A DNA stretch of 64,000 bases from an uncultured Candidatus Saccharibacteria bacterium (GTDB lineage Bacteria; Patescibacteriota; Minisyncoccia; Phycocordibacterales; CALRHW01). Where the stretch lies: assembly GCA_964407105.1 (NCBI GenBank), contig CAYOUG010000004.1:6936-70935 (forward strand), written 5' to 3'. Every line of letters begins with the position of its first letter. Within the stretch, counting starts at the first letter, position 1. Below the pieces are notes generated by a model that saw only the letters and a list, made by a program, of their open reading frames with translations, did no database searches and had not been told where the DNA came from. This document shows, piece by piece, positions 8,284 to 62,459 of this stretch. The position numbers and the translations under genes were made by a program.

Positions 8284-11200
8284 TTAGATTTCTGGCTCAA
8301 CCGGAGAAGAATTTTCTGGGGCTGATTCACCCTCAGGTTGTACTTGATCAACAGAAGAAGAATCGTTTGGTGGATTTACATCAGCATCAGCACTAGCATC
8401 TCCAGAAATTTCATCTCCGCCAGTTTGGGCTTGTGTCTGTGGGGGTTGCACTTCGCTAGTAGGCACCTCAACATTATTATTTTGACCACACTCACCAGCG
8501 ACAGAAAGCATTTTTCCATTAGACATCTTCAAACAATAAGGTTCGCCTGTAACCTCATCATAAAGTGTAATTCCTGTTGGCTTTTCACTACTTCCCACTG
8601 TAAATGTTTCTACTATCACATTTTTAAATTGAGCAACATCTTGTGCAATATTTACACCAAAATTTTTCAAATAATTCATTATCGCAACAATCAAAGATTC
8701 TGAATTTACAATTCCAGTAGAGGTTGCAGAGCTTGTTGCGGTAGTAGATGCAACACCAAGCTGATTTTCCAAAGCGGTGACTCGCATTTCTAGATTATCA
8801 AACTTATGTTGAAGTGCTTTTACGCCACCAAGCGTAAACACCGCGAGCTTATATGCATCTATATCTTTACCACCAACAGAAAGAATTTCACTTGGTGCTT
8901 CATCAGCAACAATTCCAAGTCGAAGTGGCGCCGACTCATCTTCATTTTTGTATCGATAAGTTGAAATTGTTGTACCTTTTATTTTATCAAGATACGTATC
9001 TAGATCAGTCTCAGTAAGTGATGTCACTGAATCAAGTTTGTTGCGATCACCAAATACTGAAAATCCGTAGCCAGCAACATCACCTGACACCGTAAGCTTG
9101 AACGAAGGACTTGTAGTACCAATACCTACGTTACCAAACGTGTCTTGTACCAACATATTTCCATAGTAGTAGGTTGGCTCAACTTTCATCATCACTGTTT
9201 TTGTGTAAAGTTTTGAATTTTCATCATATGATTGAATAGCTCGACCAATTACAGGACCAGAGGCTGTTGCTTTCATGGCCACACCAGAAATAGATGAGGA
9301 AGTGAGATAATCTCCTGGTTTAATATCTCCATTTTCAAGAGAGATAAGTACTGGCACACGTCCGGACATTGCTACGTTCACAGTATGTTCATTTGTTTCT
9401 CCAAGATTTTGTACACTTGTCATACCCACCACACCAAAAACATTTGCGTCATAAATTTTATTACTCAAACGCACACGTGAGGTGTCTTTTTCGTGGAAAG
9501 CAACCACCGAGCCCTCAACAAATTGAGTTGGATCTCCCACTAAATATGGCGCGGTAATAGCAGCCGCAGAAACAGAATTATAATTTTTAATATCATCTTC
9601 ACTAAGTGACGCCACACCACCCACTTCTTCAGATTGAGCAATCATTGGTGTAGAAAGAGATCCTGGTGGATCATCCATCCAAAAACGAATAAGAGAAACA
9701 AGTAGACTTGGATTTGCGTTGGCTGTAACACTAGCACCAGCAAAATTTGCAACGAGTGTTATTGGCTGAAGTGTCGCCGAAGGAATGGTTGTATTGTGTA
9801 CCGCCACCACAGCACCATTTATCAAATATGTTGCTGAGGTAGTAGAAAGTTCAATACGCATTTTTAGAAAATTTGTGGTCGAAGTCGCTACGTTTGTATT
9901 AGTAAATGTTTCTCCACTTCTATTTTTAGTAACCATTATCCAATTTGGCCCAGAGGTTGCTGTAAAAAATGCGCCCTGTGTTGGTACGGTTCCTGTATCA
10001 GCACCAAAAGCGGCGTCTGTAAGACCTACAACATAAAGAGGTGTGGTAGTAGCTGTCGCAGTACGTGTAGCTTGTACCCATGCTTCAAATATTGGACTTG
10101 ATGTTGCAGAACTAGTAAAAACCGCTGTGCGAAGTGCGCTTCCGTCTCCAACGGTTGGATTTGTTGCGCCGGCTTGCAATTGAATAGCGGGAGGGTATGT
10201 GTTCCTTGTTAAAATCGCGGTGCCGTCTGTATCTAAGTCGAAAGCAAAATCTCCACAGGCACCAGCAGCATCAGAAGACCAAGCACCTCCTCCAGAACCA
10301 CCCACATCGCAAGAAAGATATCGCCACGTTGTATATACACGACCAGCTACAGTAAGCTGATCTCGAAGTCCACCAGCACCCCACGTGGTTGTTGTACCGA
10401 TAGCTACACGAGCATAATCTAGAAGACCTGTGGTTGTGGAAGTTACATAAAAGAGTGGTTGCTGTCCTCCGTTATTCCAATCACTTGTGGTCGCCACTAT
10501 AAAAGACGGGAGAATACTGTCCGTTCCACCACCCACCACAGAAAGTTTTGCATATGCTGATGTGGTGCCGATTCCAAAATTTCCAACAGAACTTAATGTT
10601 GCTTTTGTTGCATTATTTACTCTAAATCCCATCGATTTTCCTGATGGTGTATTAAATATTGTTCCTTCACCAGCATCCCACAAAAATGAATAACTATTCG
10701 TGTCTGGTGCAACCGTGTTTGCTCCAAACCATATTCCGGGATATGTGGTGTCTCCCACGATATTTCCCAACAAAACCCCCCTTCCAGCTCCAGCGTTAGA
10801 AAATCCAGCAACCAAATTACCAGCAACGTCTAATTTTTGTACTGGTGAGCTAGTACCAATTCCTACATTTCCAATATTATTTACCAAAAAATATGTTGAT
10901 GTGGCGTTTGAAACAGATGATGATGCGATTGCAAATAAAGGAATTTGAGATGAAGCGTTTACGCTTGTTATGGAAAGTTTTGCATATGGTGTAGTTGTAC
11001 CGATTCCAACAAGTCCAGTAGAAGTGATGCGCATACGTTCATTTGATGAAAGTGTGCCAGCTGTATGGAAAATAATATTTGCATTGCCTGTGGTAGACGC
11101 AGTACCAATGGCAAGATTGCTATCTGAACTATAAAGATAGGCATCATTTGCGCCGGTGATAGAAAACGCTGCTTGATTGTATGTAGAACTATTGATACCA

Positions 11201-14200
11201 AGATCTACATAATATTTTGTATCTGAACCCAAATCATTTGTTGCTATCCAGTCAGAAGAAGCTGCACTTCCTGAACTTGAATTTTGAATATTTGCTTGAA
11301 GATATCCATCTGTAGATGAGCCAATATTTAACATTGCGCCAGGAAACAATGATCCTGATCCGATAATTGTCTGTGAAAGATACGAAGTACTCGACGCATA
11401 TATTCCTGCCTTTGCCCACAGTGCTGTGGTGGTAGCTGAGGTATTTACTCCGTAGTTTGTAAGTGGTGTGAATGGGAAAGCACCTCCTGATGCAGTAATA
11501 GCTCCACAGGTTACTACCCCTGATGAATCGGTAGTAAGTGCACTTGATCCACTACAACCAGAGATACCTGAAATATTGAGTGCTGTGGTGGAAGCTGTGC
11601 CTGAGACGGTGATTGCGGTGGTTGAAGCGTATGGGAAGGTGGAGGCAGAGCTTGAGGTAGAGGTAATAGCACCACCAACAAAAAGAGTACTTGAGATGTA
11701 ACCCGCACCGTGTACTGAAAAAAGTTTCCCAGGTGTACTTGTAGCGACTCCCACATTTCCAAAAGCCGAAACACTATTATGACCAAGAACTACATTTCCA
11801 TTAGCGTTTCCTTGACCCGCATAAATAAAGACACTACCACCAGAAGCCTGAGCTTCTGTATCACTACCAGCCCCAATAAACACATCTCCTCCTTGAGTAG
11901 TTACAGTGTCCGCACCCAAAATAGAAAGTCGCCCACCTCCAGCAGTATCAAAACCGATTGTTCTGTTTGTGGCGGCCGATGTAAAATACAAATCACCATT
12001 TACTTCAAGTCTTGCGTTTGGACTCAATGTACCAACCCCAATAAATCCACTTGAATTCCATATTCCAGAACCTGGGAAGTAGGCTGTACCAGAAACAGAA
12101 AGTGCGGTAGTGGTTGCATTTGTTGTGGTTGAGTTATCAAAGATTGCGTTTGCAAAATATGAGGTTGATGATGCAAATATCCCAGACTGTGCCCACAGTG
12201 CTGTGGTGGTAGCTGAGGTATTTACTCCGTAGTTTGTAAGTGGTGTGAATGGGAAAGCTCCTCCTCCACCCACAATAGCTCCACAGGCTACTACTCCTGA
12301 TGCGTTGGTAGTAAGTGCGTTTGATCCACTACAACCCGAGATACCTGAAATATTGAGTGCTGTGGTAGAAGCTGTACCTGTGACAGTGATTGCGGTAGTT
12401 GAAGCGTATGGGAAGGTGGAGGCAGAGCTTGAAGTAGAGGTGATGGTGCCGCCGACAAAGAGAGTACTTGAGATGTAACCCGCGCCCTGAACAGCAAATT
12501 TTGTGCTTGGGGTTGCAGTAGCCACTCCAACATTTCCAAAAATATCAACGATAAATTGTGTCGAGGTTGCAATACCTGTTGAAGAAGAGGCTACTACAAA
12601 TTGTGGTATGAGACTGTTGTGAGAACTAACGGAAAGTTTTGCCCATGGAGTACTTGTACCAACACCAACTCTTCCTCCAGTATCAGCAATAATTACATTT
12701 CCATCGTAAGCAGGAACCCCTCCACTTGAAGCACCACCACGTATGTATATGTTCCCGCCACTTGTTGATCCGCCCACATCTTCATTTCCAGCAGCACCCG
12801 CCGCCAACAAAAGATGACTTCCTGCAACATCAGATGCACTTTGTCCAATAAATATTCTTCTTGTAGCAATTGAAGCTATACCTGGAAAAGAGATATCGCC
12901 AGCAACCAAAAGCTGAGGTAAACCGCTTGGATTTAGATCAGAATTTGATGTAGTAAATCTTTGGTAAGAACCAATTTGTACATACTGATTGTATACAGCG
13001 AGAACATCTCTATCTGATGATGTTGCTACAGTGAGTAGTTTCAAGCCGGGTTCATTATTTCCAAATCCAGTTATTGTTGAACCTACGATAGCAAGTTTCG
13101 CCTTTGCCGAGGTGGTACCTATATAAAGACCTGTTGCAAATGTACTTGTGGCAGAAAAATTCGCAGCCACAAATTGTGAAGTACTCGACGCAAATATTCC
13201 AGACTGTGCCCACAGTGCTGTGGTGGTAGCTGAGGTATTTACTCCGTAGTTTGTAAGTGGTGTGAATGGGAAAGCTCCTCCTCCACCCACAATAGCTCCA
13301 CAGGCTACTACTCCTGATGCGTTGGTAGTAAGTGCACTTGATCCACTACATCCTGAGATACCTGAAATATTGAGTGCAGTGGTGGAAGCTGTGCCTGAGA
13401 CGGTGATTGCTGTGGTTGAAGCGTATGGAAATACTGAAGCTGTTGATGTAGTAGCGGTGAAGTATGCGGATACGGTCTCTCCCACCACAGAAAGTTTTGC
13501 GTATGGTGAGGTGGTGCCGACTCCGACATTGCCGCCATTCAAAACTATTTTTCCATTAGCACCAGCAGAAGCGTTTGCGCCAGATGTGCCCGCAGTAATA
13601 TAAACACTACCTCCCGCACCACCAGTATCTGGACCGCCACTACCAGCTCCGCCATTACCTGCAGTAAGAGTTAAATCTCCACCAACACCCGCTGGACCAC
13701 CTGATCCACCAGCACCACCAGTACCTGTGGTTATGGTTATAGCACCACCCGCTCCACCAGCACCACCTGCTCCAGTTCCAGTTCCACCAGTTCCAGCAAA
13801 AAGAAGCATTTTGCCACCGACACCAGCCGTTGCTCCAGATCCACCCGTTCCACCAAGAACTGAAAACACTGTTGATGCACTAATACCAGAAGATTGATCG
13901 TTTCCTTTTACTGAAAACTTAGCAAATGGCGAACTTGTTCCCACTCCTACATTTCCAATAACATCAACAATAAAATCTGTTGTTGTTGCAAATACACCAG
14001 CAGTAGAAGAAGCAATTACAAATTGTGGTTGTGTTCCTCCGTTTGAACTAACAGAAAGTTTTGCCCATGGAGTAGTTGATGATACACCGATATTTCCAGT
14101 AGAGGTTACTCTTAAATATTCATTGCCTCCAGTAGAAAATCCAACAACATCAGCACTAGGAGAAAATACTCCAGTATTAGTATCACCACTAAATGAAAGA

Positions 14201-15777
14201 CCTGGGGTAGCGGCATTACCAGCACCAGCAATACCTAGAGTTTGAGTAGTATTAATTCTAGCTGTACCAGCAATCCAAAATTGTGTTGAAGCATTAACTA
14301 CACCGTCAGCTCGCCAATAATCGTTGGTGTTATTAAACATGAAATAATCTGTCGCTCCAGAAATTGCAGACGCCGCAAGATTTATACCATATACCGCCGC
14401 AGCACCAAGATTTGAAATATTAAGTCCTGCAAGACCAAGTCCTCCTCCGTCTATAGTAAGTCGTGAACTAGAACCGCTTGAAGCTCCGGGTGTTGATGTA
14501 CCAATACCAATAGATCCATTAAACGAAGATGTCGCGGTAGATGTACCGACAAAAGTTTCTCCTACCACCTGTCCCGCCACAGAAAGTTTTGCATAAGGTG
14601 AGGTGGTGCCGATTCCCACACTTCCAGTAGATGTCCATATTCCAGAACCTGGGAAATAAGCAGTACCAGAAACAGAAAGTGCGGTAGTGGTTGCATTTGT
14701 TGTGGTTGAGTTATCAAAGATTGCGTTTGCAAAATATGAGGTTGATGATGCAAATATCCCAGACTGTGCCCACAGTGCTGTGGTGGTAGCTGAGGTATTT
14801 ACTCCGTAGTTTGTAAGTGGTGTGAATGGGAAAGCTCCTCCTCCACCCACAATAGCTCCACAGGCTACTACTCCTGATGCGTTGGTAGTAAGTGCGTTTG
14901 ATCCACTACAACCCGAGATACCTGAAATATTGAGTGCTGTGGTAGAAGCTGTACCTGTGACAGTGATTGCGGTAGTTGAAGCGTATGGGAAGGTGGAGGC
15001 AGTAGATGTGGTAGCGGTGAAGTATGCGGATACTGTTTGACCAACAACAGAAAGTTTTGCATAAGGTGAGGTGGTGCCGATTCCTACATTTCCTCCACTT
15101 TTTAATGTAAGTACCGATGCAGAACTTGGACCAATAAAGTTTGCAATGTCACCCGCTCCGTTTTGTGTAATCGTCAAAAATGTTGATGCAGTATTTGTAG
15201 CGTTTGTTGCATCAGCGCGCAAAAATTGCTCGCTTGAAAGACCATCTAAGGTATCTGCAACAAACGCTGCCGGCACAGCACCAAGTTTTTTTCGAGGTGT
15301 CATTTCCCCATCCCAAACCGCACCACCACCAGATCCTCCCACCTCAACCCCGAGGTAAAGCGTTTGATTGAAATCTACACTCGTCAGCGGTGTAGAGCTT
15401 CCAAGCATAACACTGAAAAGACCGTTGGTAAGGGTGATACGATCACCTGCCGCAGTACTCCTGTCTTCATCCCAAATACTCGCTCCACCTGTTGCAACAG
15501 TGTAGAGCTTAAATCTCATGTGATACGTGCCATCAGCGACAGCAACATTGCTTGAATTAGTAAGCTTTCCCTGATAATTAATTTCTTTATTAAATGCAGC
15601 GTTTGCACTTTTTGTTTGGCCTAGAAACAAAAGTTGCGGCGATAAAAGAGATACGAGTACAACAAACACAACAGCTGTTGTATATACGCGTAGAAAACGA
15701 CGTGTGCATGCAAAAGCCGTCGTGCGCATTGTGACCGCATTTCTTATATCTATGATGTTTTTAATAAGCGTACGCAT
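8284..15777 (-). CDS. Giant secreted fibre/adhesin-like protein (2497 aa). Repetitive Gly/Thr/Ser-rich tail-fibre-like beta-helical repeats, Gly-rich block, C-terminal Peptidase_S74 intramolecular chaperone domain plus acidic C-terminal extension
   Basis: N-terminal signal/TM (VVFVVLVSLLSPQLLFLGQ). At least 10 copies of G(I/V)GT(T/S)SP(Y/W/F)AKLSV(V/S)G-type repeats. Four copies of a roughly 130-aa module (SAYFTATTSTAS...CSGS...ACGAIVGGGGAFPFTPLTNYGVNTSATTTALWAQSGIFASSTS). Near the C-terminus ...FGDRNKLDSVTSLTETDLDTYLDKIKGTTISTYRYKNEDESAPLRLGIVADEAPSEIL...YKLAVFTLGGVKALQHKFDNLEMRVTALENQL matches the endosialidase-chaperone (S74) domain consensus (SDRRLKenI...l..v.Y.yk......r.GfIAqEv..v.Pe.v........y.l...i.A.kel....eeLe). 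Confidence 0.85.
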   Translation of the reverse strand: MRTLIKNIIDIRNAVTMRTTAFACTRRFLRVYTTAVVFVVLVSLLSPQLLFLGQTKSANAAFNKEINYQGKLTNSSNVAVADGTYHMRFKLYTVATGGASIWDEDRSTAAGDRITLTNGLFSVMLGSSTPLTSVDFNQTLYLGVEVGGSGGGAVWDGEMTPRKKLGAVPAAFVADTLDGLSSEQFLRADATNATNTASTFLTITQNGAGDIANFIGPSSASVLTLKSGGNVGIGTTSPYAKLSVVGQTVSAYFTATTSTASTFPYASTTAITVTGTASTTALNISGISGCSGSNALTTNASGVVACGAIVGGGGAFPFTPLTNYGVNTSATTTALWAQSGIFASSTSYFANAIFDNSTTTNATTTALSVSGTAYFPGSGIWTSTGSVGIGTTSPYAKLSVAGQVVGETFVGTSTATSSFNGSIGIGTSTPGASSGSSSRLTIDGGGLGLAGLNISNLGAAAVYGINLAASAISGATDYFMFNNTNDYWRADGVVNASTQFWIAGTARINTTQTLGIAGAGNAATPGLSFSGDTNTGVFSPSADVVGFSTGGNEYLRVTSTGNIGVSSTTPWAKLSVSSNGGTQPQFVIASSTAGVFATTTDFIVDVIGNVGVGTSSPFAKFSVKGNDQSSGISASTVFSVLGGTGGSGATAGVGGKMLLFAGTGGTGTGAGGAGGAGGAITITTGTGGAGGSGGPAGVGGDLTLTAGNGGAGSGGPDTGGAGGSVYITAGTSGANASAGANGKIVLNGGNVGVGTTSPYAKLSVVGETVSAYFTATTSTASVFPYASTTAITVSGTASTTALNISGISGCSGSSALTTNASGVVACGAIVGGGGAFPFTPLTNYGVNTSATTTALWAQSGIFASSTSQFVAANFSATSTFATGLYIGTTSAKAKLAIVGSTITGFGNNEPGLKLLTVATSSDRDVLAVYNQYVQIGSYQRFTTSNSDLNPSGLPQLLVAGDISFPGIASIATRRIFIGQSASDVAGSHLLLAAGAAGNEDVGGSTSGGNIYIRGGASSGGVPAYDGNVIIADTGGRVGVGTSTPWAKLSVSSHNSLIPQFVVASSSTGIATSTQFIVDIFGNVGVATATPSTKFAVQGAGYISSTLFVGGTITSTSSSASTFPYASTTAITVTGTASTTALNISGISGCSGSNALTTNASGVVACGAIVGGGGAFPFTPLTNYGVNTSATTTALWAQSGIFASSTSYFANAIFDNSTTTNATTTALSVSGTAYFPGSGIWNSSGFIGVGTLSPNARLEVNGDLYFTSAATNRTIGFDTAGGGRLSILGADTVTTQGGDVFIGAGSDTEAQASGGSVFIYAGQGNANGNVVLGHNSVSAFGNVGVATSTPGKLFSVHGAGYISSTLFVGGAITSTSSSASTFPYASTTAITVSGTASTTALNISGISGCSGSSALTTDSSGVVTCGAITASGGAFPFTPLTNYGVNTSATTTALWAKAGIYASSTSYLSQTIIGSGSLFPGAMLNIGSSTDGYLQANIQNSSSGSAASSDWIATNDLGSDTKYYVDLGINSSTYNQAAFSITGANDAYLYSSDSNLAIGTASTTGNANIIFHTAGTLSSNERMRITSTGLVGIGTTTPYAKLSITSVNASSQIPLFAIASSSVSNATSTYFLVNNIGNVGIGTSSPVQKLDVAGNLVAGFSNAGAGRGVLLGNIVGDTTYPGIWFGANTVAPDTNSYSFLWDAGEGTIFNTPSGKSMGFRVNNATKATLSSVGNFGIGTTSAYAKLSVVGGGTDSILPSFIVATTSDWNNGGQQPLFYVTSTTTGLLDYARVAIGTTTTWGAGGLRDQLTVAGRVYTTWRYLSCDVGGSGGGAWSSDAAGACGDFAFDLDTDGTAILTRNTYPPAIQLQAGATNPTVGDGSALRTAVFTSSATSSPIFEAWVQATRTATATTTPLYVVGLTDAAFGADTGTVPTQGAFFTATSGPNWIMVTKNRSGETFTNTNVATSTTNFLKMRIELSTTSATYLINGAVVAVHNTTIPSATLQPITLVANFAGASVTANANPSLLVSLIRFWMDDPPGSLSTPMIAQSEEVGGVASLSEDDIKNYNSVSAAAITAPYLVGDPTQFVEGSVVAFHEKDTSRVRLSNKIYDANVFGVVGMTSVQNLGETNEHTVNVAMSGRVPVLISLENGDIKPGDYLTSSSISGVAMKATASGPVIGRAIQSYDENSKLYTKTVMMKVEPTYYYGNMLVQDTFGNVGIGTTSPSFKLTVSGDVAGYGFSVFGDRNKLDSVTSLTETDLDTYLDKIKGTTISTYRYKNEDESAPLRLGIVADEAPSEILSVGGKDIDAYKLAVFTLGGVKALQHKFDNLEMRVTALENQLGVASTTATSSATSTGIVNSESLIVAIMNYLKNFGVNIAQDVAQFKNVIVETFTVGSSEKPTGITLYDEVTGEPYCLKMSNGKMLSVAGECGQNNNVEVPTSEVQPPQTQAQTGGDEISGDASADADVNPPNDSSSVDQVQPEGESAPENSSPVEPEI
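11377..11706. repeat. Intragenic DNA repeat copy 1 (most divergent) inside the giant fibre gene
   Basis: Shares tgcccacagtgctgtggtggtagctgaggtatttactccgtagtttgtaagtggtgtgaatgggaaagc... through ...gagtacttgagatgtaacccgc with the copy at 12058-12486. The antisense ORF 11468-11701 translates nearly identically to the ORFs at 12245, 13262 and 14822. Confidence 0.75.
12058..12486. repeat. Intragenic DNA repeat copy 2 (about 430 bp), near-identical to copy 4
   Basis: 12058-12426 is essentially identical to 14635-15003 (about 369 bp), and then continues like copy 1. Confidence 0.8.
13166..13436. repeat. Intragenic DNA repeat copy 3
   Basis: agactgtgcccacagtgctgtggtggtagctgaggtatttactccgtagtttgtaagtggtgtgaatgggaaagctcctcctccacccacaatagctccacaggctactactcctgatgcgttggtagtaagtgc... 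is shared with copies 2 and 4. Confidence 0.8.
14635..15003. repeat. Intragenic DNA repeat copy 4, near-identical to copy 2
   Basis: See copy 2. The identity runs from ccatattccagaacctggg... through ...gcgtatgggaaggtggaggcag. Confidence 0.8.
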
Positions 15778-15780
15778 TAA

Positions 15781-17349
15781 TTATTTTTTGAGAAGCGCTC
15801 GGACAAATTTATATCCGAGAAAAAGCAACACAAAGATAAGTATTAGAACAAGAAGAACAGGAATATTTTCTGAAACAAGAACAAACAAACCGTGAAGTGA
15901 TAAATCTGTATTTGATGCAACATTTGGCATCAAAGACACGATCACACCTGCAAGTTTTTTTAATCCTTGATTTTTGTAATCAAGAATCGTTACACCAAAC
16001 TCAAACTTTCCTGAACGACCAAGCGGTGCAATGAGTGCCTCATAAGCTGTTTTCTCTTTATTTACTCGAAGCAAAAACGAAAATGTTTTAGAGTGATCTT
16101 CTGGGTCTCGCATTGTTACCGTAATCGTCTTTAGAATTTCTGGAACTTTTTTGTAATCAAGAGAAATTGTAAGTTCTCGATCTCCTTCTATTTCAACTGA
16201 GTGAGAAGTAACAGAAAGTTTTTTACCATTTTGAAAGAAATCTAAATCAAGCACCGTGAGTCCCGCAATCATTGGATGAACTTTTGATTGAGGTAACTCT
16301 TGTATTTCTCCAAAAAGATCTTCTGAATCATGTGGCTCGCCTATTTTATAGAGTCGGCCTTTTGTAACCGCTCCAGATGAATAGTTACCAAACTCATCGC
16401 GAGCAAAAACTGTGTAGTAATAAACTTTTCCATACTCCACATCTGTGTCTACTAGAAATTCAGCATTTCCTTCATAAACCACTTTTCCATCAAACAAATC
16501 TTTTGGATAAAATTTGTCAGATCGCACTACACGTACAGATTCAAAATCCACAAGAGGATTTTTCCAAGAGAGTGTGATTTTTTTATCATCACCCACCGCT
16601 TTTAAATTTGTAACGTTACTCGGCGGATTTGTATCAGGTAATGATGTAGTTACAAATTGTTGATTGTCTATCACAAGTTTTCGTCCATATGCATCAATAA
16701 GCTCGATTCTGAAATAATATGTCGTACCCGGTGTAAGACTTTCTATACTAATAGAGTGATTTGTGAGAAAGAGCTGTTCGGCAAGAGTACCGATCTCATA
16801 ATCTGGAGTTTCTCCCCACGACACAATCGCTTGTGTGTAGATGTTTGTCTCAAAATTTATGACAGAACTTGTAACGTCTGGTTGCACCGACATGCCAAGC
16901 AATTTAAGCAACAAAGTTCCCGATATGTTTCCATCACTGGTTGTTGGTGGTGGAACTGAGGCTTCAAGTGTTGTCGCAGTAGCGGTTGCTGATGTTGGTG
17001 AATAGTTGAACGATGAATCAAATGCGGTCACTGTATAGTCGTATGTTGTTTCCGGAGAAAGACCAGTATTTGAATATGTCGTTGCGGTAGATGTTGCAAT
17101 AAACACTAGATCACGAAAGACTTGATATCCTGCAACACCATAATTATCTGTTGATGCAGTCCATGAAAGATTTATCTGCGAACTCGATACTGCAGTAGCT
17201 GTAAGATTTGTGGGAGTAGATGGGGCGACACCGTCAACGACCGTTATTGATTGCTCTACTTGAAACGTATCTTCTGCCGCTTGTATAGATAGCACCGCAC
17301 CACAAAGTGTGACGGTGAAAACCATAAAAATGTATAGAAGTTTTTTCAT
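15781..17349 (-). CDS. Cell-surface protein with fibronectin type III domains, N-terminal signal peptide and C-terminal TM anchor
   Basis: 522 aa. Signal peptide (MKKLLYIFMVFTVTLCGAVLSIQA). FN3 hallmark motifs (NLTATAVSSSQINLSWTASTDNYGVAGYQVFRD; KKITLSWKNPLVDFESVRVVRSDKFYP...YYYTVFARDEFGN). C-terminal hydrophobic anchor IPVLLVLILIFVLLFLGYKFVRALLKK. The stop lies 3 nt from the giant gene start. Confidence 0.7.
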   Translation of the reverse strand: MKKLLYIFMVFTVTLCGAVLSIQAAEDTFQVEQSITVVDGVAPSTPTNLTATAVSSSQINLSWTASTDNYGVAGYQVFRDLVFIATSTATTYSNTGLSPETTYDYTVTAFDSSFNYSPTSATATATTLEASVPPPTTSDGNISGTLLLKLLGMSVQPDVTSSVINFETNIYTQAIVSWGETPDYEIGTLAEQLFLTNHSISIESLTPGTTYYFRIELIDAYGRKLVIDNQQFVTTSLPDTNPPSNVTNLKAVGDDKKITLSWKNPLVDFESVRVVRSDKFYPKDLFDGKVVYEGNAEFLVDTDVEYGKVYYYTVFARDEFGNYSSGAVTKGRLYKIGEPHDSEDLFGEIQELPQSKVHPMIAGLTVLDLDFFQNGKKLSVTSHSVEIEGDRELTISLDYKKVPEILKTITVTMRDPEDHSKTFSFLLRVNKEKTAYEALIAPLGRSGKFEFGVTILDYKNQGLKKLAGVIVSLMPNVASNTDLSLHGLFVLVSENIPVLLVLILIFVLLFLGYKFVRALLKK

Positions 17350-17355
17350 TACGTT

Positions 17356-18120
17356 TTAAAGGGGTAGTGCAGTAACTGTTGTTGTGGCTAGATATACTCC
17401 TTCTGGTTGAAGATGTGCAGTGCCAGATTGAGCACGAAATTTTAGTGTTGTAGCGGTACCTGATGGATGATTTGGAGAAGTACTTCTACTTATTACTTCA
17501 TTCGCAGTTGAGAGATTGTACCAACACGCATCTGCTGTATCGGTTGTGTCAACATTGCATGTGTTAGATCCATTGTCTTTAAACTTTTGAACAATGTGTG
17601 AACCTTCAGGTGTAAAAGCAAATTCTGATGCAGAAGCAGCGATTGAAAAGGTGAAATCTGGATTTGCACCAGCTGGTGTATAATCCGCAAAACTATTTGC
17701 ACCACTCACAAGCGCTGGTGAAGAACTTGCTTTGATACTAAGTTCATAACCAGAAGGACTGTCGGTAATAACCGTCACAACCGCGGATCCATTTGAAGTA
17801 CCGCCGGTCACACCACCAATATTTGGACTCATAACCACATCAGAAACAGAAGTAATTGCGATATACACTTCTTGCATCTGTTGATACCCTGCTTTTATTT
17901 TGTAGAGTGTGCCTGAAGATTCGCCAGTAGCTACTTCTCCAGCAGTACTTTCTTGCGTATAACTTGTAGAAGTAGAAAGTCCTCCTCCAAAATTAACGCT
18001 GTCGCTTTGAATTTTGTATAACGTACCGGTCATTTGAGCAAAAGAAACATTGCCAAATGTTGATACCACATACAAAGAAACTGAAACAAATAAAGCTGTA
18101 TACAGATAAGCCTTAAACAT
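17356..18120 (-). CDS. Secreted Ser/Thr-rich protein, paralog A of 19104-19808
   Basis: 254 aa with signal peptide. Shares with 19104-19808 the motifs VTGGTS.G, GY...IKASSSPA, KFKDNGSNTCN, two conserved Cys (..NTCN... ..CW..LST) and a T/A-rich C-terminus (TATATLTAVT / ATTTVTALPL). Confidence 0.55.
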   Translation of the reverse strand: MFKAYLYTALFVSVSLYVVSTFGNVSFAQMTGTLYKIQSDSVNFGGGLSTSTSYTQESTAGEVATGESSGTLYKIKAGYQQMQEVYIAITSVSDVVMSPNIGGVTGGTSNGSAVVTVITDSPSGYELSIKASSSPALVSGANSFADYTPAGANPDFTFSIAASASEFAFTPEGSHIVQKFKDNGSNTCNVDTTDTADACWYNLSTANEVISRSTSPNHPSGTATTLKFRAQSGTAHLQPEGVYLATTTVTALPL

Positions 18121-18122
18121 GA

Positions 18123-19094
18123 TTATGATTTCTTTCGAATTTCAAACCGAGTAACAATAAATCGAATTACAAAGAGCAAGATTATAATGATCACACACGC
18201 AAGAACGAGAAGTTTTATTGGAATTACCCAAAAAGTAAATTCCATTGTGTCTACAATGTTGTCATAACCCCTATTTATAGAAGCTACGGCCGTGTATTTT
18301 CCGAGAAGAAAACCACTATTCCATTGCACCTCTCGAAGTCTCAGCGAGTCAGGCATCGCAAACCAAGGAGCCACTTCTACATTTCCAATTTCCTTTCCAA
18401 GAATATTTTTTATACTGATTTCTCCATAAGGATTTTCGTGCACACTTCCTTTGTTTTCATAAAGAAGTTCAAACTGCACTGGACCAGCACCATAAATTTT
18501 CTTTGTATTTTTTGTTTGGAATTGTGTAAGTTTTCCTTCTTGTTTTACCTCACCCGGTACTCGAATAAAAAACAATGTTCCTATGCGAGTAACTATTGCA
18601 CTTGATGGACCTTTGGCGCCCGTTGGTTTTGAAGCGGTACTTACAAGAACACTTCCATACAAACCACCCGGCTGTGCATCTGCTGGAACAAACACAGTCA
18701 CAGGAATAATTGCTCTCTGTGCGTGCATGAGTTCAAAACTTTTTTCTGGAAAAGAAATATAATCTTTTAGAGAATATGGACCGTGATCTTCACCAAGAAG
18801 AACAACTGTATCTGAGGTATTTTTAGAACCACTAAAATCTTCGGTATCAAGATAAAAGATACGAGTATCTCCCATTCTGTTACTTACTGAAATATTTACT
18901 GTTTTACTTTCTCCGGGTTTTATTTCAAGTTCCTGTTTTCCAGGACCAACCACGAAGTCACTTCGCACAATATCGTCAGGAAGCGCTTCTATCGTGTAAG
19001 AAAAAACTTTAGAAAAAGGAAAAAGAGACACTAAACAAAAAAACATAATGACACCAACCTTCCAGGATATGTAATTTTTTTCTGTAGACGTCAT
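18123..19094 (-). CDS. Surface protein with N-terminal signal peptide, beta-rich ectodomain and C-terminal TM anchor
   Basis: 323 aa. Hydrophobic N-terminal segment, ectodomain beginning YTIEALPDDIVRSDFVVGPGKQELEIKPGESKTVNISVSN, C-terminal TM LLVLACVIIIILLFVIRFIV followed by basic residues. Flanked by the two paralogous secreted proteins. Confidence 0.5.
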   Translation of the reverse strand: MTSTEKNYISWKVGVIMFFCLVSLFPFSKVFSYTIEALPDDIVRSDFVVGPGKQELEIKPGESKTVNISVSNRMGDTRIFYLDTEDFSGSKNTSDTVVLLGEDHGPYSLKDYISFPEKSFELMHAQRAIIPVTVFVPADAQPGGLYGSVLVSTASKPTGAKGPSSAIVTRIGTLFFIRVPGEVKQEGKLTQFQTKNTKKIYGAGPVQFELLYENKGSVHENPYGEISIKNILGKEIGNVEVAPWFAMPDSLRLREVQWNSGFLLGKYTAVASINRGYDNIVDTMEFTFWVIPIKLLVLACVIIIILLFVIRFIVTRFEIRKKS

Positions 19095-19103
19095 ACGGTT
19101 AAT

Positions 19104-19808
19104 TTAGTTTGTAACTGCTGTGAGGGTGGCTGTAGCTGTGTATGTGTCTTGAGCAAGACCTGAATTTGAACCAACAGAAACTCTAAAATAAACACTTGAT
19201 GTCGAACCAGATGCTGTTGTTTCGCTAGAAGATACTATGGTTGATGTTGCCGAAGTAGAAAGACCCATCCAACATGATCCAGATCCACCAGTATCGGCCG
19301 ATCCCGTATTGCATGTATTTGAACCATTATCTTTAAACTTTGTTGCAAGTTCTGCTGTAGTACTTGCAGAAACACTAAAACCAAATTTATGTGTACCCGC
19401 ACCCGCTGCTGAATAAGCATAATCAGGAACACCAGTAACCGCAGGAGAATAATCTGATATTGATCCACCTTGAGAATCTGCTTGCATTGCGGGCGAACTA
19501 CTTGCTTTTATTGTCATGGTATAACCAGCAGCATTGTTGGTTGTAACAATTGCTGTTGTTGTACCGTATGACGTACCTCCAGTAACACCGGCAATAGAAC
19601 CGTTCATTGTGACGTTGTTTGCTCCGGTTAAGAAAGCAATTTCTGAGGTGATTGATTGAGTAACTGTAAATTGATCTTCAACCGCTCGACTTAGTGTGGG
19701 TTCAATAACCACAAAAGCCAACGCAAGTGTAAGAGTCAAAAAGAAACTCGCTGCAATCGCCTGTCTTACATTTATTTTTTTAATCATAATTTTTAATTTA
19801 ACTTTCAA
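19104..19808 (-). CDS. Secreted Ser/Thr-rich protein, paralog B of 17356-18120
   Basis: 234 aa. Signal peptide (start possibly at an internal Met, MIKKINV...). Homology to 17356-18120 through the IKASSSPA / KFKDNGSNTCN / CW.GLST motifs. Confidence 0.55.
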   Translation of the reverse strand: MKVKLKIMIKKINVRQAIAASFFLTLTLALAFVVIEPTLSRAVEDQFTVTQSITSEIAFLTGANNVTMNGSIAGVTGGTSYGTTTAIVTTNNAAGYTMTIKASSSPAMQADSQGGSISDYSPAVTGVPDYAYSAAGAGTHKFGFSVSASTTAELATKFKDNGSNTCNTGSADTGGSGSCWMGLSTSATSTIVSSSETTASGSTSSVYFRVSVGSNSGLAQDTYTATATLTAVTN

Positions 19809-19836
19809 ACTTTAATAATATTTCGACCTTTACAGA

Positions 19837-19889
19837 CTTACGTCTGTTCTCGAGGCTCGCTTACTACAAGCGCCGAGAACAGACGTAAG
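19837..19889. other. GC-rich perfect 16-bp inverted repeat (stem-loop) between two minus-strand genes
   Basis: cttacgtctgttctcg (19837-19852) and cgagaacagacgtaag (19874-19889) around a 21-nt loop. Followed on the plus strand by tatttatttttt. Unusually GC-rich for this window. Confidence 0.5.
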
Positions 19890-19899
19890 TATTTATTTT

Positions 19900-20799
19900 T
19901 TAATCATCAACCGGTACAAGAACATATAAATATTCTTGATCATTTGTATTTTTAAATATTGGTTTTATCACACCAGAAGAACCTGTTTCGTCTGGTACGA
20001 CCTGTGTTTGATCAGAAAATGAATTCTTAATTCTCTGTTTTACTTTTTCATTTTTAAATTCATCTCCTGTACCTGGCACCACAATCATTCCCGTCTTTGA
20101 ATCTTGCGATACAGAATTTCGATGGTTTATATCATCACGCACAACCACTGTTTTATTTATATTCATACGCAACAAAGATGAAATAAATCTGTATGAATTT
20201 AAAGCGATTGAATCAAATTTGTTACGCAACGAATGCGTAAGATCACGAACACTAATCTGGATATTATTTACATTTGAAACACTTGCGGAATCTCGCACAA
20301 GTGCAAGTGTTTTAGATGTTTTAGAAACAAAAGAAGTTATAAATATTTTTTCTGAAGAAATAAAATGTTCTGAAACAACAGCAATATTTGTTTGATATTG
20401 TTTGTTGTTTGAACCATAAGCAAAAAAAGCTATTGCAGAAATTACAATAAACAAAAGGGCATAAAACATTCCTGAATGTGAAAGAAAAGAAAATACTTCA
20501 GAGGGAGCAAATTCTTTTTTGTTCGTTTTTAGGTTTTCTGACGCTTTAAAAACCGAAGCATTTTGTGACACAACACTGACTGGAGGAAATACGATTGTTC
20601 CACGAATTTTTTCAGATGCATCTTTTTGGTGTTCGATGATCGAATCTTCGCTCACAAACCAACCCCTTCCCACCTGTCGGCACTCAAGTTTGCCAGATCG
20701 ACAAAGTTGACCGATATAATCCGAATTATAGCCAGATATTTCTGAACCTCGTTTTGCCGAGATATATTTTTTTCCGTTGAAATAGAGCTCGCTATTCAT
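19900..20799 (-). CDS. Membrane-anchored protein with N-terminal excisionase/MerR-like HTH, single TM and extracytoplasmic C-terminal domain
   Basis: 299 aa. The N-terminal about 60 aa (KKYISAKRGSEISGYNSDYIGQLCRSGKLECRQVGRGWFVSEDSI) has the HTH_17/Xis-MerR pattern (helix...G.L...R.G...W.v.e..i). TM segment MFYALLFIVISAIAFFAYG. Ser/Asn-rich C-terminal domain. Confidence 0.45.
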   Translation of the reverse strand: MNSELYFNGKKYISAKRGSEISGYNSDYIGQLCRSGKLECRQVGRGWFVSEDSIIEHQKDASEKIRGTIVFPPVSVVSQNASVFKASENLKTNKKEFAPSEVFSFLSHSGMFYALLFIVISAIAFFAYGSNNKQYQTNIAVVSEHFISSEKIFITSFVSKTSKTLALVRDSASVSNVNNIQISVRDLTHSLRNKFDSIALNSYRFISSLLRMNINKTVVVRDDINHRNSVSQDSKTGMIVVPGTGDEFKNEKVKQRIKNSFSDQTQVVPDETGSSGVIKPIFKNTNDQEYLYVLVPVDD

Positions 20800-25900: not shown

Positions 25901-26440
25901 TTAAACAATACTAGAAAGACGATATGTTTTTCGTGCCGCCAAACACACTGCTACAATACACGCAAAAAGTGTTAAAGACATCATTGGAATAGTAATGTAA
26001 CCGAATTCAAGCACAAATATTTTTGAACATGCTCCACCAAATGAGGTGCATGGAGTAAAAGAATGCCCACCAAGCTGTGTAAAAGAATGATAAAGTGCGA
26101 CAGCTCCACCAAAAAGCGACAAAATATAAATATAAGGCAAAATATGTCTTTCTCTACGCCACAAAGCAAGACCCAACAAAGCTACCTGTGGATACAAAAA
26201 CAATCTTTGAACCCAACACAAAACACAAGGCTCAAAACCAATCGCTTCTGAATACACCAAACTTCCCACCAAGCCAGCTAAAGATAAAAAAAATGCAACA
26301 CTAATAGCTCTTTCCCCCACCCATCTCACGATCCTGTCATTTAGTGTCGCACGAACGGAAAGAGCAACGACAAACAAAACGAGTAGTATCTGTAAAAAAA
26401 GTGTGGACCAAACAAAAACTGAAGTTATTAATTCTGACAT
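25901..26440 (-). CDS. Disulfide bond formation protein B (DsbB/BdbC family)
   Basis: 179 aa, 4 TM. First-loop motif EPCVLCWVQRLFLYPQ matches BdbC (PCxLCWYQRIxMYP), with a second Cys pair in the distal loop (PCTSFGGAC). Confidence 0.78.
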   Translation of the reverse strand: MSELITSVFVWSTLFLQILLVLFVVALSVRATLNDRIVRWVGERAISVAFFLSLAGLVGSLVYSEAIGFEPCVLCWVQRLFLYPQVALLGLALWRRERHILPYIYILSLFGGAVALYHSFTQLGGHSFTPCTSFGGACSKIFVLEFGYITIPMMSLTLFACIVAVCLAARKTYRLSSIV

Positions 26441-26452
26441 TTTTATAATAAA

Positions 26453-26848
26453 TTATTTTGGTAACTCACATTGAGTGATGCTCGACAATTCTGCAAGTGG
26501 CAATACACCCTCTTTTCTTGTACCGTCAGAAAATTCCCACGTTGGATATGTTTTTATGTTTTTATCCTTGCATACTTGTAATTGAGATTGACCATCTGGT
26601 GTAGAACATTCTGTGTAAGGAAGCGTTGACTGTGATTTACCAAACAAAGCTTTTTGCTCCCTACAATGTGGACACCAAAACGCACCGTAAAACACTGTCC
26701 CTTTATCCTTTAAACACTGAGCAAATTGATCAAATTCCCCTGATTTTCCTGGGGTTTTTATCAAAAAAATTGAAAAGCCTATAAGCAATAACACCACCAA
26801 AATCGTGATAATTGTTCCCTTATGTTTCATATGCGCCCAGTATATCAC
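26453..26848 (-). CDS. Membrane-anchored thioredoxin-fold thiol-disulfide oxidoreductase (DsbA/BdbA-like partner)
   Basis: 131 aa. N-terminal TM anchor then FYGAFWCPHCREQK (CxxC thioredoxin active site). Gene overlaps the DedA gene end and lies adjacent to the DsbB homolog. Confidence 0.72.
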   Translation of the reverse strand: MIYWAHMKHKGTIITILVVLLLIGFSIFLIKTPGKSGEFDQFAQCLKDKGTVFYGAFWCPHCREQKALFGKSQSTLPYTECSTPDGQSQLQVCKDKNIKTYPTWEFSDGTRKEGVLPLAELSSITQCELPK

Positions 26849-60575: not shown

Positions 60576-62459
60576 TTATTTAGAAACGTCAAGAATTTTA
60601 CGCAAAACATCCTCAGGAACTTCTTTTGGATCTTGTGGTGTGTTTTTGTGTGTAAAATTTTGTTGCGCAGGATTGTTTGGTTTTTCAGAAATAGGGTTTG
60701 TCTTTTGAGTAACAGCTGCGAGTGCTTCTTTTAAACTAGCCACATTTTCTTTTGTGGGCGCTTTTGGATCTGGTGCATCTTTTGATGTTTTTTGTCGAAG
60801 TGTTTGAAGTGATACCGTTTCTGGTGGCTTTTCTTCTTTTACGTGCAATTTTCCGTCAGAACCAACCGCAATTTCTTCAAATGGATTTTTTTGTGACACA
60901 TTAAATTCTGGCACATTAACATCTGGCGATTTTTCTCTAGAAAAAATAGCGGATGGGTGTTCGTGGGATTTTTCTGATGGTGATTTTCCAAAATGTGGGT
61001 GTTTTTCTTGAGGTGTTTGAGGTGTGTGTGGAGCTTGTGATGTTTGTGGCGCAGAAAATTGCTTATCGTGTCTTTGTCCACCATCGTTTTGCGGTCTTTC
61101 ATTTTGTGGCCTTTTCTGCCCACCATGACCACCTCCGCTATTTCCAGAACCAGGAGTCACAACAGGCTTATGCCACTCAACAATATCGTGCTCCACATCC
61201 TGTCTTGGACGAGCAAACATCTTCCTTGAATTTTCAATTATTTCGTCTCTATACATCACCTCAGGTTTTTTTATAGGCGGAAGAGTTGTCGCAGAAAAGG
61301 GTGGTGAGGTTACACCGTCAATCATGAGCTTTAAATAAATCTGCACAAAACCAAGATTTACCAAGTCTTCTGCGGTAAATGTAGGCATGAATTCTTTTTC
61401 AAGAACCTCAGCATCATACGCACCAACACGAAAAGCGACCATTGTTCCAACGTTACCAAAAACAGCAGCACGCACCTCCTCGGACATTTGTTCTATATAT
61501 TGATGCGCAACAGTAAGATTAAGTTTGTATTTTCGCGCCTCAGAAAGAATGTCAGCAAAAGATTCATTGGCAAAATTTTGAAACTCATCAACAAAAAGAT
61601 AAAATTGTGGCAATCCGTTTAATACTGTTTCATTTACGTCAGCGCGAGACATTGCACCAAGATAAATTTTGGTAATAAGCATACTTCCAAGAAGATTGGC
61701 GTTTGCCTCGCCCACTCTACCTTTTGAAAGATTGATAATCATAATCTTTCGCTCATCCATTAATTTACGAATATCAAAGGTAGATTTTGGCTGACCAATA
61801 ATATTACGTACAAGAGGATTGGCTACAAACTGACCAATTTTATTTTGAATAGCTGCACCCGCCTCCTGCATATATCTCTCACCATATTTTTCAAATTCAT
61901 CTACCCAAAAAGATTTTACAGAAGGATCAGAAATATTTGCTACCACTTTTTTGCGATAATCTTTGTCTGCAAGCATTCTGTTGACACCTATGAGTGTGGA
62001 GTCTGGATATTCCAAAAGAGCCAGAAGAATATTATTTAAAATATATTCCATACGAGCAGACCACGCGTCTACCCAAATCTTTTTAAACGCACTCATGAGA
62101 CCGTTGGCAACCAAATGTCTTTTGTCCACCCCCACGTCTTCCATCACATTAAATGAAATTGGATAATCTGTATCAAAAGGAGCAAAATAAACAATATCTT
62201 TTATTCTTTCTTTTGGAACATATTCTAGAAGAAGATCAGCCGTTTTTCCGTGTGGATCGATAAAAGCCATACCTTCACCATTTTGAATATCCTGCACAGC
62301 AAGATTTTCAAGCAGGGTTGATTTTCCCATGCCTGTTTTTCCGATGATATAAACATGACGAGAGCGATCTTTAGATTTTATGCCAAACGGCACCCGCTGA
62401 TTGCGCGCGTCAGTCTGAGCAAAATATGAAACAGTATTAGGATTCATATAGTGTTTCAA
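60576..62459 (-). CDS. Soluble VirD4/TraG/TraD-like (type IV coupling protein family, AAA-like/DUF87) P-loop NTPase with about 200-aa disordered Pro/Gln/Lys-rich C-terminal tail
   Basis: 627 aa. Walker A IIGKTGMGKSTLLENL followed by FIDPHG. Walker B-like LFVDEFQNF. LNLTVAHQYIEQMSEEVRAAVFGNVGTMVAFRVGAYDAEVL resembles the TraG-D_C region (Q.isQL...yG......il.n..t.i.lr..D.eta). No TM helices. The C-terminal 200 aa are low-complexity (GGGHGGQKRPQNERPQNDGGQ...). Confidence 0.6.
   Translation of the reverse strand: MKHYMNPNTVSYFAQTDARNQRVPFGIKSKDRSRHVYIIGKTGMGKSTLLENLAVQDIQNGEGMAFIDPHGKTADLLLEYVPKERIKDIVYFAPFDTDYPISFNVMEDVGVDKRHLVANGLMSAFKKIWVDAWSARMEYILNNILLALLEYPDSTLIGVNRMLADKDYRKKVVANISDPSVKSFWVDEFEKYGERYMQEAGAAIQNKIGQFVANPLVRNIIGQPKSTFDIRKLMDERKIMIINLSKGRVGEANANLLGSMLITKIYLGAMSRADVNETVLNGLPQFYLFVDEFQNFANESFADILSEARKYKLNLTVAHQYIEQMSEEVRAAVFGNVGTMVAFRVGAYDAEVLEKEFMPTFTAEDLVNLGFVQIYLKLMIDGVTSPPFSATTLPPIKKPEVMYRDEIIENSRKMFARPRQDVEHDIVEWHKPVVTPGSGNSGGGHGGQKRPQNERPQNDGGQRHDKQFSAPQTSQAPHTPQTPQEKHPHFGKSPSEKSHEHPSAIFSREKSPDVNVPEFNVSQKNPFEEIAVGSDGKLHVKEEKPPETVSLQTLRQKTSKDAPDPKAPTKENVASLKEALAAVTQKTNPISEKPNNPAQQNFTHKNTPQDPKEVPEDVLRKILDVSK

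Follow-up and report, generated by a model that had tools for sequence, protein, structure and literature searches.

Dispersed near-identical modules in a giant surface-fiber gene of a Patescibacterium and their probable homogenization by intragenic gene conversion

Introduction

For the attachment of ultrasmall Patescibacteria to their hosts, giant surface proteins offer some of the few available clues; owing to the rapid evolution of these proteins, homologs over their full length are usually lacking. The present analysis concerns a giant gene, predicted to encode a surface fiber, on the minus strand (8284..15777) of a 64-kb stretch of DNA from an uncultured Candidatus Saccharibacteria bacterium (contig CAYOUG010000004.1 of assembly GCA_964407105.1); the whole stretch is referred to below as the window. 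The gene encodes 2497 amino acids (aa), its reading frame is intact over 7.5 kb, and within it lie four dispersed copies of one sequence module that are strikingly alike at the nucleotide (nt) level and that, in all likelihood, have been kept so by gene conversion within the gene. The process itself is textbook and the surprise is therefore limited; the locus nevertheless provides a new, well-documented example in a poorly known protein family, with a clean and quantifiable recombination footprint that includes dated conversion tracts and their breakpoints and that can be set against a syntenic ortholog. All positions are plus-strand coordinates of the window and, as the gene is read from the minus strand, the copies are numbered M1 to M4 in protein order.

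Four In-Frame Copies of a Module

Repeat finding, an in-register identity scan and self-BLAST agree on four direct, in-frame copies of the module inside the one gene, all on its coding (minus) strand: M1 at 14635..15003 (core aa 259-347, with a C-terminal extension to aa 381), M2 at 13177..13443 (core aa 779-867), M3 at 12058..12426 (core aa 1118-1206, with a C-terminal extension to aa 1240), and M4 at 11383..11649 (core aa 1377-1465). The starts of neighboring copies are 777, 1017, and 1560 nt apart, each distance being divisible by 3. The module comprises about 90 aa (FPYAS...C-x16-C...FPFTP...ASSTS), to which a further 34 aa are added in two of the copies. The initial annotation had placed the copies accurately, at about 11377, 12058, 13166, and 14635, and its claim that they resemble each other in their nucleotides, and not just in the encoded protein, is borne out by self-BLAST.

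The closest pair is M1 and M3, which match at 366 of 369 nt (99.2% identity). An earlier reading of these two segments as identical over about 369 bp thus holds as near-identity, while exact identity is confined to a run of 340 nt (14663-15002 = 12086-12425), the three mismatches all falling at one end, within 29 nt. The remaining module pairs share 86-95% nucleotide identity over 242-373 nt, and one stretch of 69 nt is without difference across all four copies. M4 is the most diverged copy, with 87-89% nucleotide identity to the others and its private substitutions located within and after the Cys-Cys loop. M2 is a mosaic: its codons 295-339 carry the M1/M3 sequence (an exact run of 137 nt), while its codons 268-294 and 340-346 resemble M4.

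Self-BLAST revealed no other long repeats in the 64-kb window, and the module forms no tandem array in the gene, where Tandem Repeats Finder (TRF) reports only a trivial 27-nt array. The module repeats are therefore dispersed and not tandem. Each copy also carries an antisense open reading frame (ORF) with a GTG start, at 11468, 12245, 13262, and 14822, and with a length of 72-113 aa; the longest occupies 13262..13603 on the plus strand and the other three encode 72-77 aa. These ORFs vary in length and stop where the repeat stops. They are by-products, the mirror of repeated coding sequence on its non-coding strand, as had been proposed.

Evidence for Gene Conversion

The history of the copies was analyzed in a codon alignment with Nei-Gojobori counts, in which pS denotes synonymous divergence. 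The sequence preceding each module on its N-terminal side provides the yardstick. The N-flank of M1 (15004..15105, minus strand; aa 225-258, GNVGIGTTSPYAKLSVVGQTVSAYFTATTSTAS) is homologous to that of M2 (13444-13545), and the N-flank of M3 (12427..12528, minus strand; aa 1084-1117) is homologous to that of M4 (11650-11751), while the M1/M2 flank type is unrelated to the M3/M4 flank type. The M1 and M2 flanks share 85% aa identity at a pS of 0.47, which represents the baseline of divergence without homogenization; those of M3 and M4 share 79% at a pS of 0.56. From codon 259 onward the picture changes abruptly, in that M1 and M3, which stand behind unrelated flanks, do not differ at a single synonymous position over 113 codons (core pS 0.000 over 76.7 sites). 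At the divergence of the flanks the chance of finding no difference between M1 and M3 is about 0.53^77, or less than 1e-20, and chance is therefore excluded.

The groupings of the copies also switch along the alignment. Codons 250-259 unite M1 with M2 and M3 with M4 (pattern aabb, 10 sites), codons 268-294 unite M1 with M3 and M2 with M4 (abab), codons 299-339 set M4 apart from the other three (aaab), and codons 340-346 return to the abab pattern, so that 14 abab sites across codons 268-346 enclose the aaab block. These incompatible 2:2 partitions are spatially clustered (permutation p <= 1e-4). The longest concordant run of M1 and M3 spans 43 of the 60 polymorphic sites (p <= 1e-4), and in each of the module pairs the longest such run reaches significance. 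In addition, the differences between copies lie mostly at third codon positions and are without base bias, and the spacers between the modules have no nucleotide similarity to one another in self-BLAST.

A comparison with relatives points in the same direction. A syntenic ortholog of the gene (protein P0004) is present in Candidatus Paceibacterota L021 (GCA_046350795.1), in which the order of neighboring genes is the same. The four modules of the window are 87-100% identical among themselves at the nucleotide level, and only 69-74% and 59-63% identical to the modules of L021 and of a further related locus, L022, respectively. That modules resemble each other more within a genome than they resemble those of the ortholog is a classic mark of concerted evolution.

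At least two conversion tracts are visible in the sequence, and it is very probable that the copies were homogenized by intragenic gene conversion, and not by a fresh duplication. The initial annotation had left the choice between recent intragenic duplication and gene conversion; the groupings of flanks and cores, the unrepeated spacers, and the comparison with the ortholog support that statement and narrow it to the latter. According to the proposed mechanism, non-reciprocal homologous recombination within the gene would keep the copies alike. The identity of M1 and M3 would result from the most recent tract, of at least 340 nt. The middle of M2 would owe its M1/M3 sequence to an older one of about 137 nt, and M4 would have escaped conversion for longest. 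The enzymology would presumably be RecA-type recombination.

Several observations weigh against this interpretation. Four sequences do not separate donor from recipient, and the data consist of a single assembled sequence, for which neither strain variants nor a second member of the protein cluster at 90% identity were found. The syntenic ortholog in L021 keeps its two modules diverged (73% nucleotide identity), and two strains of the ortholog lineage (proteins P0004 and P0260; 98.7% aa identity) are equal in length; homogenization is therefore not constant at this locus. Lastly, no recA gene occurs in the 64-kb window, to which this result applies.

Alternative Explanations

The copies could instead stem from a recent segmental duplication, produced by unequal crossing-over or replication slippage, with no conversion between pre-existing copies. 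Near-identical in-frame copies are the expected trace of such an event, and the fact that all four modules are nearer to one of the two L021 modules (L021_b, 81-86% aa identity) than to the other (71-73%) would accord with their expansion from one ancestor. An unequal crossover would, however, have copied the spacers as well, and as these spacers, of 777-2577 nt, lack nucleotide similarity, a recent duplication by unequal crossover is excluded. Moreover, M1 and M3 are embedded in different and old flank contexts (pS 0.47 for M1-M2 and 0.56 for M3-M4), so the copies predate the tract over which they are identical, and M2 is itself a mosaic. On balance, an origin by fresh duplication appears improbable. 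Slightly less weight still is given to an artefact of assembly or polishing, in which the collapse, cross-recruitment, or mis-joining of reads from similar modules would create false identity or hide copies. The source is a metagenome-assembled contig, and the 340-nt exact repeat is longer than typical short reads; with this repeat pair, an assembly of the gene from short reads is unreliable. Against an artefact stand the frame that remains intact over 7.5 kb, the junctions of each copy, both of which are of native types that recur in M2/M4 and the ortholog, and the gradual decay of identity at one end (three mismatches in 29 nt); further, the divergence of M2 and M4 is graded and partly shared, and dispersed high-identity repeats of the same kind occur in independently assembled relatives. 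An artefact is accordingly judged quite improbable.

Selection acting on the nucleic acid itself, as an RNA or DNA element or as antisense genes, or a dedicated diversification system in the form of a diversity-generating retroelement (DGR) or of silent-cassette antigenic variation, could also be invoked. The antisense GTG ORFs of 72-113 aa in all four copies might be taken to favor the former, and DGRs are reportedly common in Patescibacteria. Yet the antisense ORFs are of unequal length and end at the repeat end, and the ortholog module is only 73% identical in its nucleotides, leaving no evident constraint at that level. The mismatches among the copies are not biased toward adenine and lie mainly at third codon positions, none of the 56 window ORFs scanned encodes a reverse transcriptase, integrase, or transposase, and no copies of the module exist outside the gene within the 64 kb. 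Explanations of this class are thus extremely improbable. A DGR was specifically rejected on the basis that no template/variable pairing yields an adenine bias and that no reverse transcriptase lies within the 64 kb. Silent cassettes were rejected for the window, to which the result applies, since BLASTN and a six-frame scan with a hidden Markov model (HMM) detected no module outside the gene. Tandem slippage at a contingency locus was likewise rejected, as TRF is negative and the copies are 777-1560 nt apart.

Recurrence in Relatives

Comparable module pairs, homogenized independently, exist in relatives. One module pair of locus L013 has 95% nucleotide identity and one of L022 has 84%, and other dispersed repeats of 200-300 nt with 90-97% identity are found in L003, L005, and L013. 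Among 120 representative proteins with several modules, an internal pair with at least 95% aa identity is present in 7, and one with at least 90% in 13. Homogenization is hence recurrent and not universal. A protein identical to the giant protein (P0001) is recorded in an NCBI metagenome-assembled contig of 79.5 kb. No near-identical contigs or proteins were present in the collections searched, exact look-ups of the giant protein and of a neighbor returned nothing, and scans of genomes and metagenomes recovered distant relatives only. A repeat of a different type was observed on a related Patescibacteria contig, L006 (2400-9700), on which a 423-nt unit is present about 12 times upstream of the matched gene, with 61-82% identity; these copies are of the tandem type, unlike the dispersed repeats of the window.

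An Uncurated Module Family

The consensus of the module reads FPYASTT..TVSGTASTT..ISG..C-x16-C..G(G)AFPFTP.TN.G.NTSAT.TALWAQ.G..ASSTS. No Pfam family covers it, and a profile search of the PDB gave no significant sequence match. A narrow HMM drawn from just the four copies of the window missed the modules of related loci, which a broader profile recovered. At E <= 1e-3 the module profile matches 914 representative proteins, and at E <= 1e-10 it matches 356. Almost every matched protein contains several copies, and one of 6938 aa has as many as 24 matched stretches. For the giant protein itself there are 908 homologs, likewise giant, and every one with a source name originates from Patescibacteria (Paceibacterota, Parcubacteria). 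The locus thus defines an uncurated repeat family of about 90 aa, and it also links these proteins to the structurally characterized fibers of Bdellovibrio known as mosaic adhesive trimers (MAT).

An AlphaFold2 (AF2) model of the module as a monomer is poor (predicted local distance difference test score, pLDDT, 61.6; predicted template modeling score, pTM, 0.26), only the Cys-Cys hairpin being moderately confident. Such an outcome is in keeping with an intertwined shaft element, without being proof of one.

Architecture of the Giant Protein

The protein opens with a putative signal peptide or anchor (15598..15777, minus strand), recognized from the sequence only and consisting of a basic n-region, the hydrophobic segment TTAVVFVVLVSLLSPQLLF, and then SANA followed by A at the apparent boundary. 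The same N-terminal layout is found in the ortholog P0004. A conserved N-terminal domain follows (15178..15597, minus strand; aa ~61-200), which has no Pfam family, is 73-84% identical to its counterpart in P0004, and is the most widely conserved part among relatives. Beyond the first ~420 aa, alignment of the giant protein with the L021 ortholog is limited to scattered modules.

The shaft contains 13 copies of the motif G-N-V-G-I-G-T-T-S-P-x-x-K-L-x-V. One segment of it (10813..11337, minus strand; aa ~1481-1655) matches solved MAT fibers of Bdellovibrio (8ond, E 1.7e-8; 8oml, 6.6e-8; 8ol4, 5.8e-3) in an alignment centered on (E)RMRIT..G.VGIGT..P...L.V, a motif that forms the capping loop of a beta-helix in the MAT fibers (PMC10769870). 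Two PHROG tail-fiber families also match shaft segments. Between M1 and M2 lies a glycine-rich stretch (13540-13860, aa ~640-745; GGTGGSGATAGVGG...GGAGGAGGAITITTGTGGAGG...), and at the L021 ortholog locus a separate Gly_rich_2 gene directly follows the giant gene.

Toward the C-terminus, a conserved block of about 450 aa (9133..10500, minus strand; aa 1760-2215) is common to at least 26 related giant proteins. In its AF2 model (pLDDT 69.6 overall), aa ~1819-2035 form an all-beta jelly-roll that is predicted with confidence, at a pLDDT of 76-93. The best fold matches of this domain are the receptor-binding domains of clostridial neurotoxins (E about 1e-7), with a low global template modeling (TM) score because two domains are involved, and the modeled block is a candidate host-binding tip. 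It is followed by an S74-like intramolecular-chaperone region (8743..9135, minus strand; aa 2215-2345), which scores 16.8-19.1 bits against Peptidase_S74 (PF13884), below the Pfam cut-off of 22. In the place of the catalytic SDxxxK, with its Ser-Lys dyad, this region has GDRNKL; SDxxxK is absent from the nearest S74 subfamily as well, and other homologs have STRDAK. Self-cleavage may therefore have been lost in this S74-like branch. After the S74-like region, the extreme C-terminus (8284-8460; aa ~2440-2497) is an acidic low-complexity tail rich in Pro, Ser, and Glu.

Judging from these features, the protein is best described as a MAT-like cell-surface fiber that probably bears a binding domain and that ends in a degenerate chaperone region. 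It is probably trimeric, and the homology to Bdellovibrio MAT fibers, along with the lectin-like jelly-roll, makes attachment to host cells its likely function.

Comparison With Known Systems

The fibers to which the shaft is related by sequence homology to three structures (8ond, 8oml, 8ol4) belong to the MAT proteins of Bdellovibrio bacteriovorus, such as Bd2133 and Bd3182, which the window protein resembles in architecture and which combine a signal peptide, an N-terminal domain, a long shaft of capping loops, and a C-terminal tip of the S74 or another type (PMC10769870). The signal-like N-terminus of the window protein and the succeeding domain, conserved among Patescibacteria relatives, may be likened in layout to the signal peptide and ~130-aa beta-rich N-domain of MATs. 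Several differences are apparent, however. The window protein is 2.5 times longer than the MATs of about 1000 aa, and originates from a different phylum; moreover, it carries the FPYAS/FPFTP module, unmatched in solved structures, and an S74 region without SDxxxK.

Other giant surface proteins of Patescibacteria, for example those of Patescibacterium danicum (PMC11809585), resemble the present one in that they come from the same phylum, are giant and secreted, have no full-length homologs, and contain domains whose positions shift between relatives. They differ in possessing FhaB/DUF2341 domains, and not this module or the S74 end. The authors of that study speculated that domains are reshuffled by homologous recombination (PMC11809585); in contrast to that suggestion, conversion tracts are visible here in the sequence itself.

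Among Gram-positive bacteria, the alpha C/Rib and M proteins are examples of the concerted evolution of repeats. As in repeats of Gram-positive surface proteins and of spider silk genes (PMC3933166), the intragenic copies studied here are closer to each other than to orthologous ones, synonymous sites included. Those repeats, however, form tandem head-to-tail arrays shaped mainly by unequal crossover, whereas unrelated sequence separates the copies in the window and the module alone is homogenized.

The closest mechanistic analog is cagY of Helicobacter pylori (PMC2194252), another large surface-protein gene with direct DNA repeats, in which recombination gives rise to variant proteins and is always in frame, as would be every pairwise crossover at the present locus. 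The many direct repeats of cagY undergo rearrangements that have been seen experimentally and that have functional and immune consequences (PMC2194252). The window, in comparison, preserves a historical footprint in the form of conversion tracts only, has four copies at 0.8-1.6 kb from each other, and belongs to an environmental bacterium of the episymbiont type that faces no adaptive immune system.

Possible Consequences of Recombination

All four copies share one frame, and a reciprocal crossover between any two of them would delete or duplicate 259, 339, 520, 598, 859, or 1118 aa in frame. Such crossovers would be expected to change both the length of the fiber and its module content, and because every crossover between copies is in frame, gain and loss of modules mediated by RecA, which the initial annotation had envisaged, is plausible. 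Recombination that depends on RecA generally needs a few tens of bases, and the 340-nt tract is far longer. By analogy with cagY, one could go on to propose that the homogenized modules are maintained as a built-in recombination device, a 'rheostat' of the cagY type within the candidate phyla radiation, a proposal that we regard as unlikely. If it were nonetheless true, subpopulations with fibers of 1379 to 3615 aa and differing module content would continually arise, and an episymbiotic Patescibacterium could in this manner tune its reach or host range.

Genomic Setting

The giant gene is flanked by genes for LepA, MurJ, GatB, and SecA, and the window also encodes a TPR protein, Obg, DsbB and a thioredoxin, MurB, tRNA-Phe, and tRNA-Arg. 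Between the window and L021, the proteins of the syntenic neighbors are 46-70% identical. The GC content of the giant gene is 0.44, as opposed to about 0.35, an excess that lies wholly at the second codon position and is explained by the composition of the product, which is rich in Gly, Thr, Ser, and Ala (13, 13, 12, and 11%, respectively). At third codon positions the GC content (GC3, 0.248) equals that of the neighbors (0.22-0.29), and the gene is therefore native to this Patescibacteria/Paceibacteria chromosome. No phage structural gene, and again no integrase, transposase, or reverse transcriptase, is among the 56 window ORFs scanned. The window is bacterial chromosome, not phage.

Two candidate origins were accordingly set aside. 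Horizontal transfer or a phage island was rejected given the GC3 shared with the neighbors, the confinement of the GC rise to second positions, and the lack of phage genes. A phage tail fiber was rejected in view of the housekeeping and envelope neighbors, the synteny with a Paceibacterota chromosome, and a similarity to phage that is confined to the PHROG level, in the shaft; IMG/VR and GenBank phages held no relatives. The label 'fiber gene' used in the initial annotation is thus appropriate as to protein type, and inappropriate if a phage tail fiber is meant, considering the chromosomal context and the absence of viral relatives.

Immediately upstream of the giant gene lie five genes on the minus strand (15781-20799) that encode proteins of 299, 234, 323, 254, and 522 aa; their order is kept in L021, where aa identities are 46-65%. 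The 254-aa protein, of which the 234-aa protein is a paralog, weakly resembles the NCBIfam 'CPR-type pilus protein PamT' (E 3.4e-6; 26.6 bits, where the cut-off is 240). A weak WxLIP_PGBD match is present in the 323-aa protein, and the 522-aa protein contains fn3 domains. The five genes may constitute either a donor-strand pilus of the Pam type or a cluster that serves for anchoring and is coupled to the fiber.

At 25901-26848, DsbB-like and thioredoxin-like genes lie side by side. The pair would accord with a disulfide in the module, and its predicted products could provide disulfide formation for the Cys pair of each copy. A cluster for the biosynthesis of glycans, about 29 kb in size (31645-60533), includes genes for a Wzy_C O-antigen-ligase-like/TPR protein, NeuB and a cytidylyltransferase (nonulosonic acid pathway), two PMT_2 glycosyltransferases, and many GT1/GT2 and methyltransferase genes; its predicted enzymes could glycosylate the Ser/Thr-rich fiber. 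At 60576-62459 lies a gene for a VirD4/TraG-like type IV secretion coupling protein.

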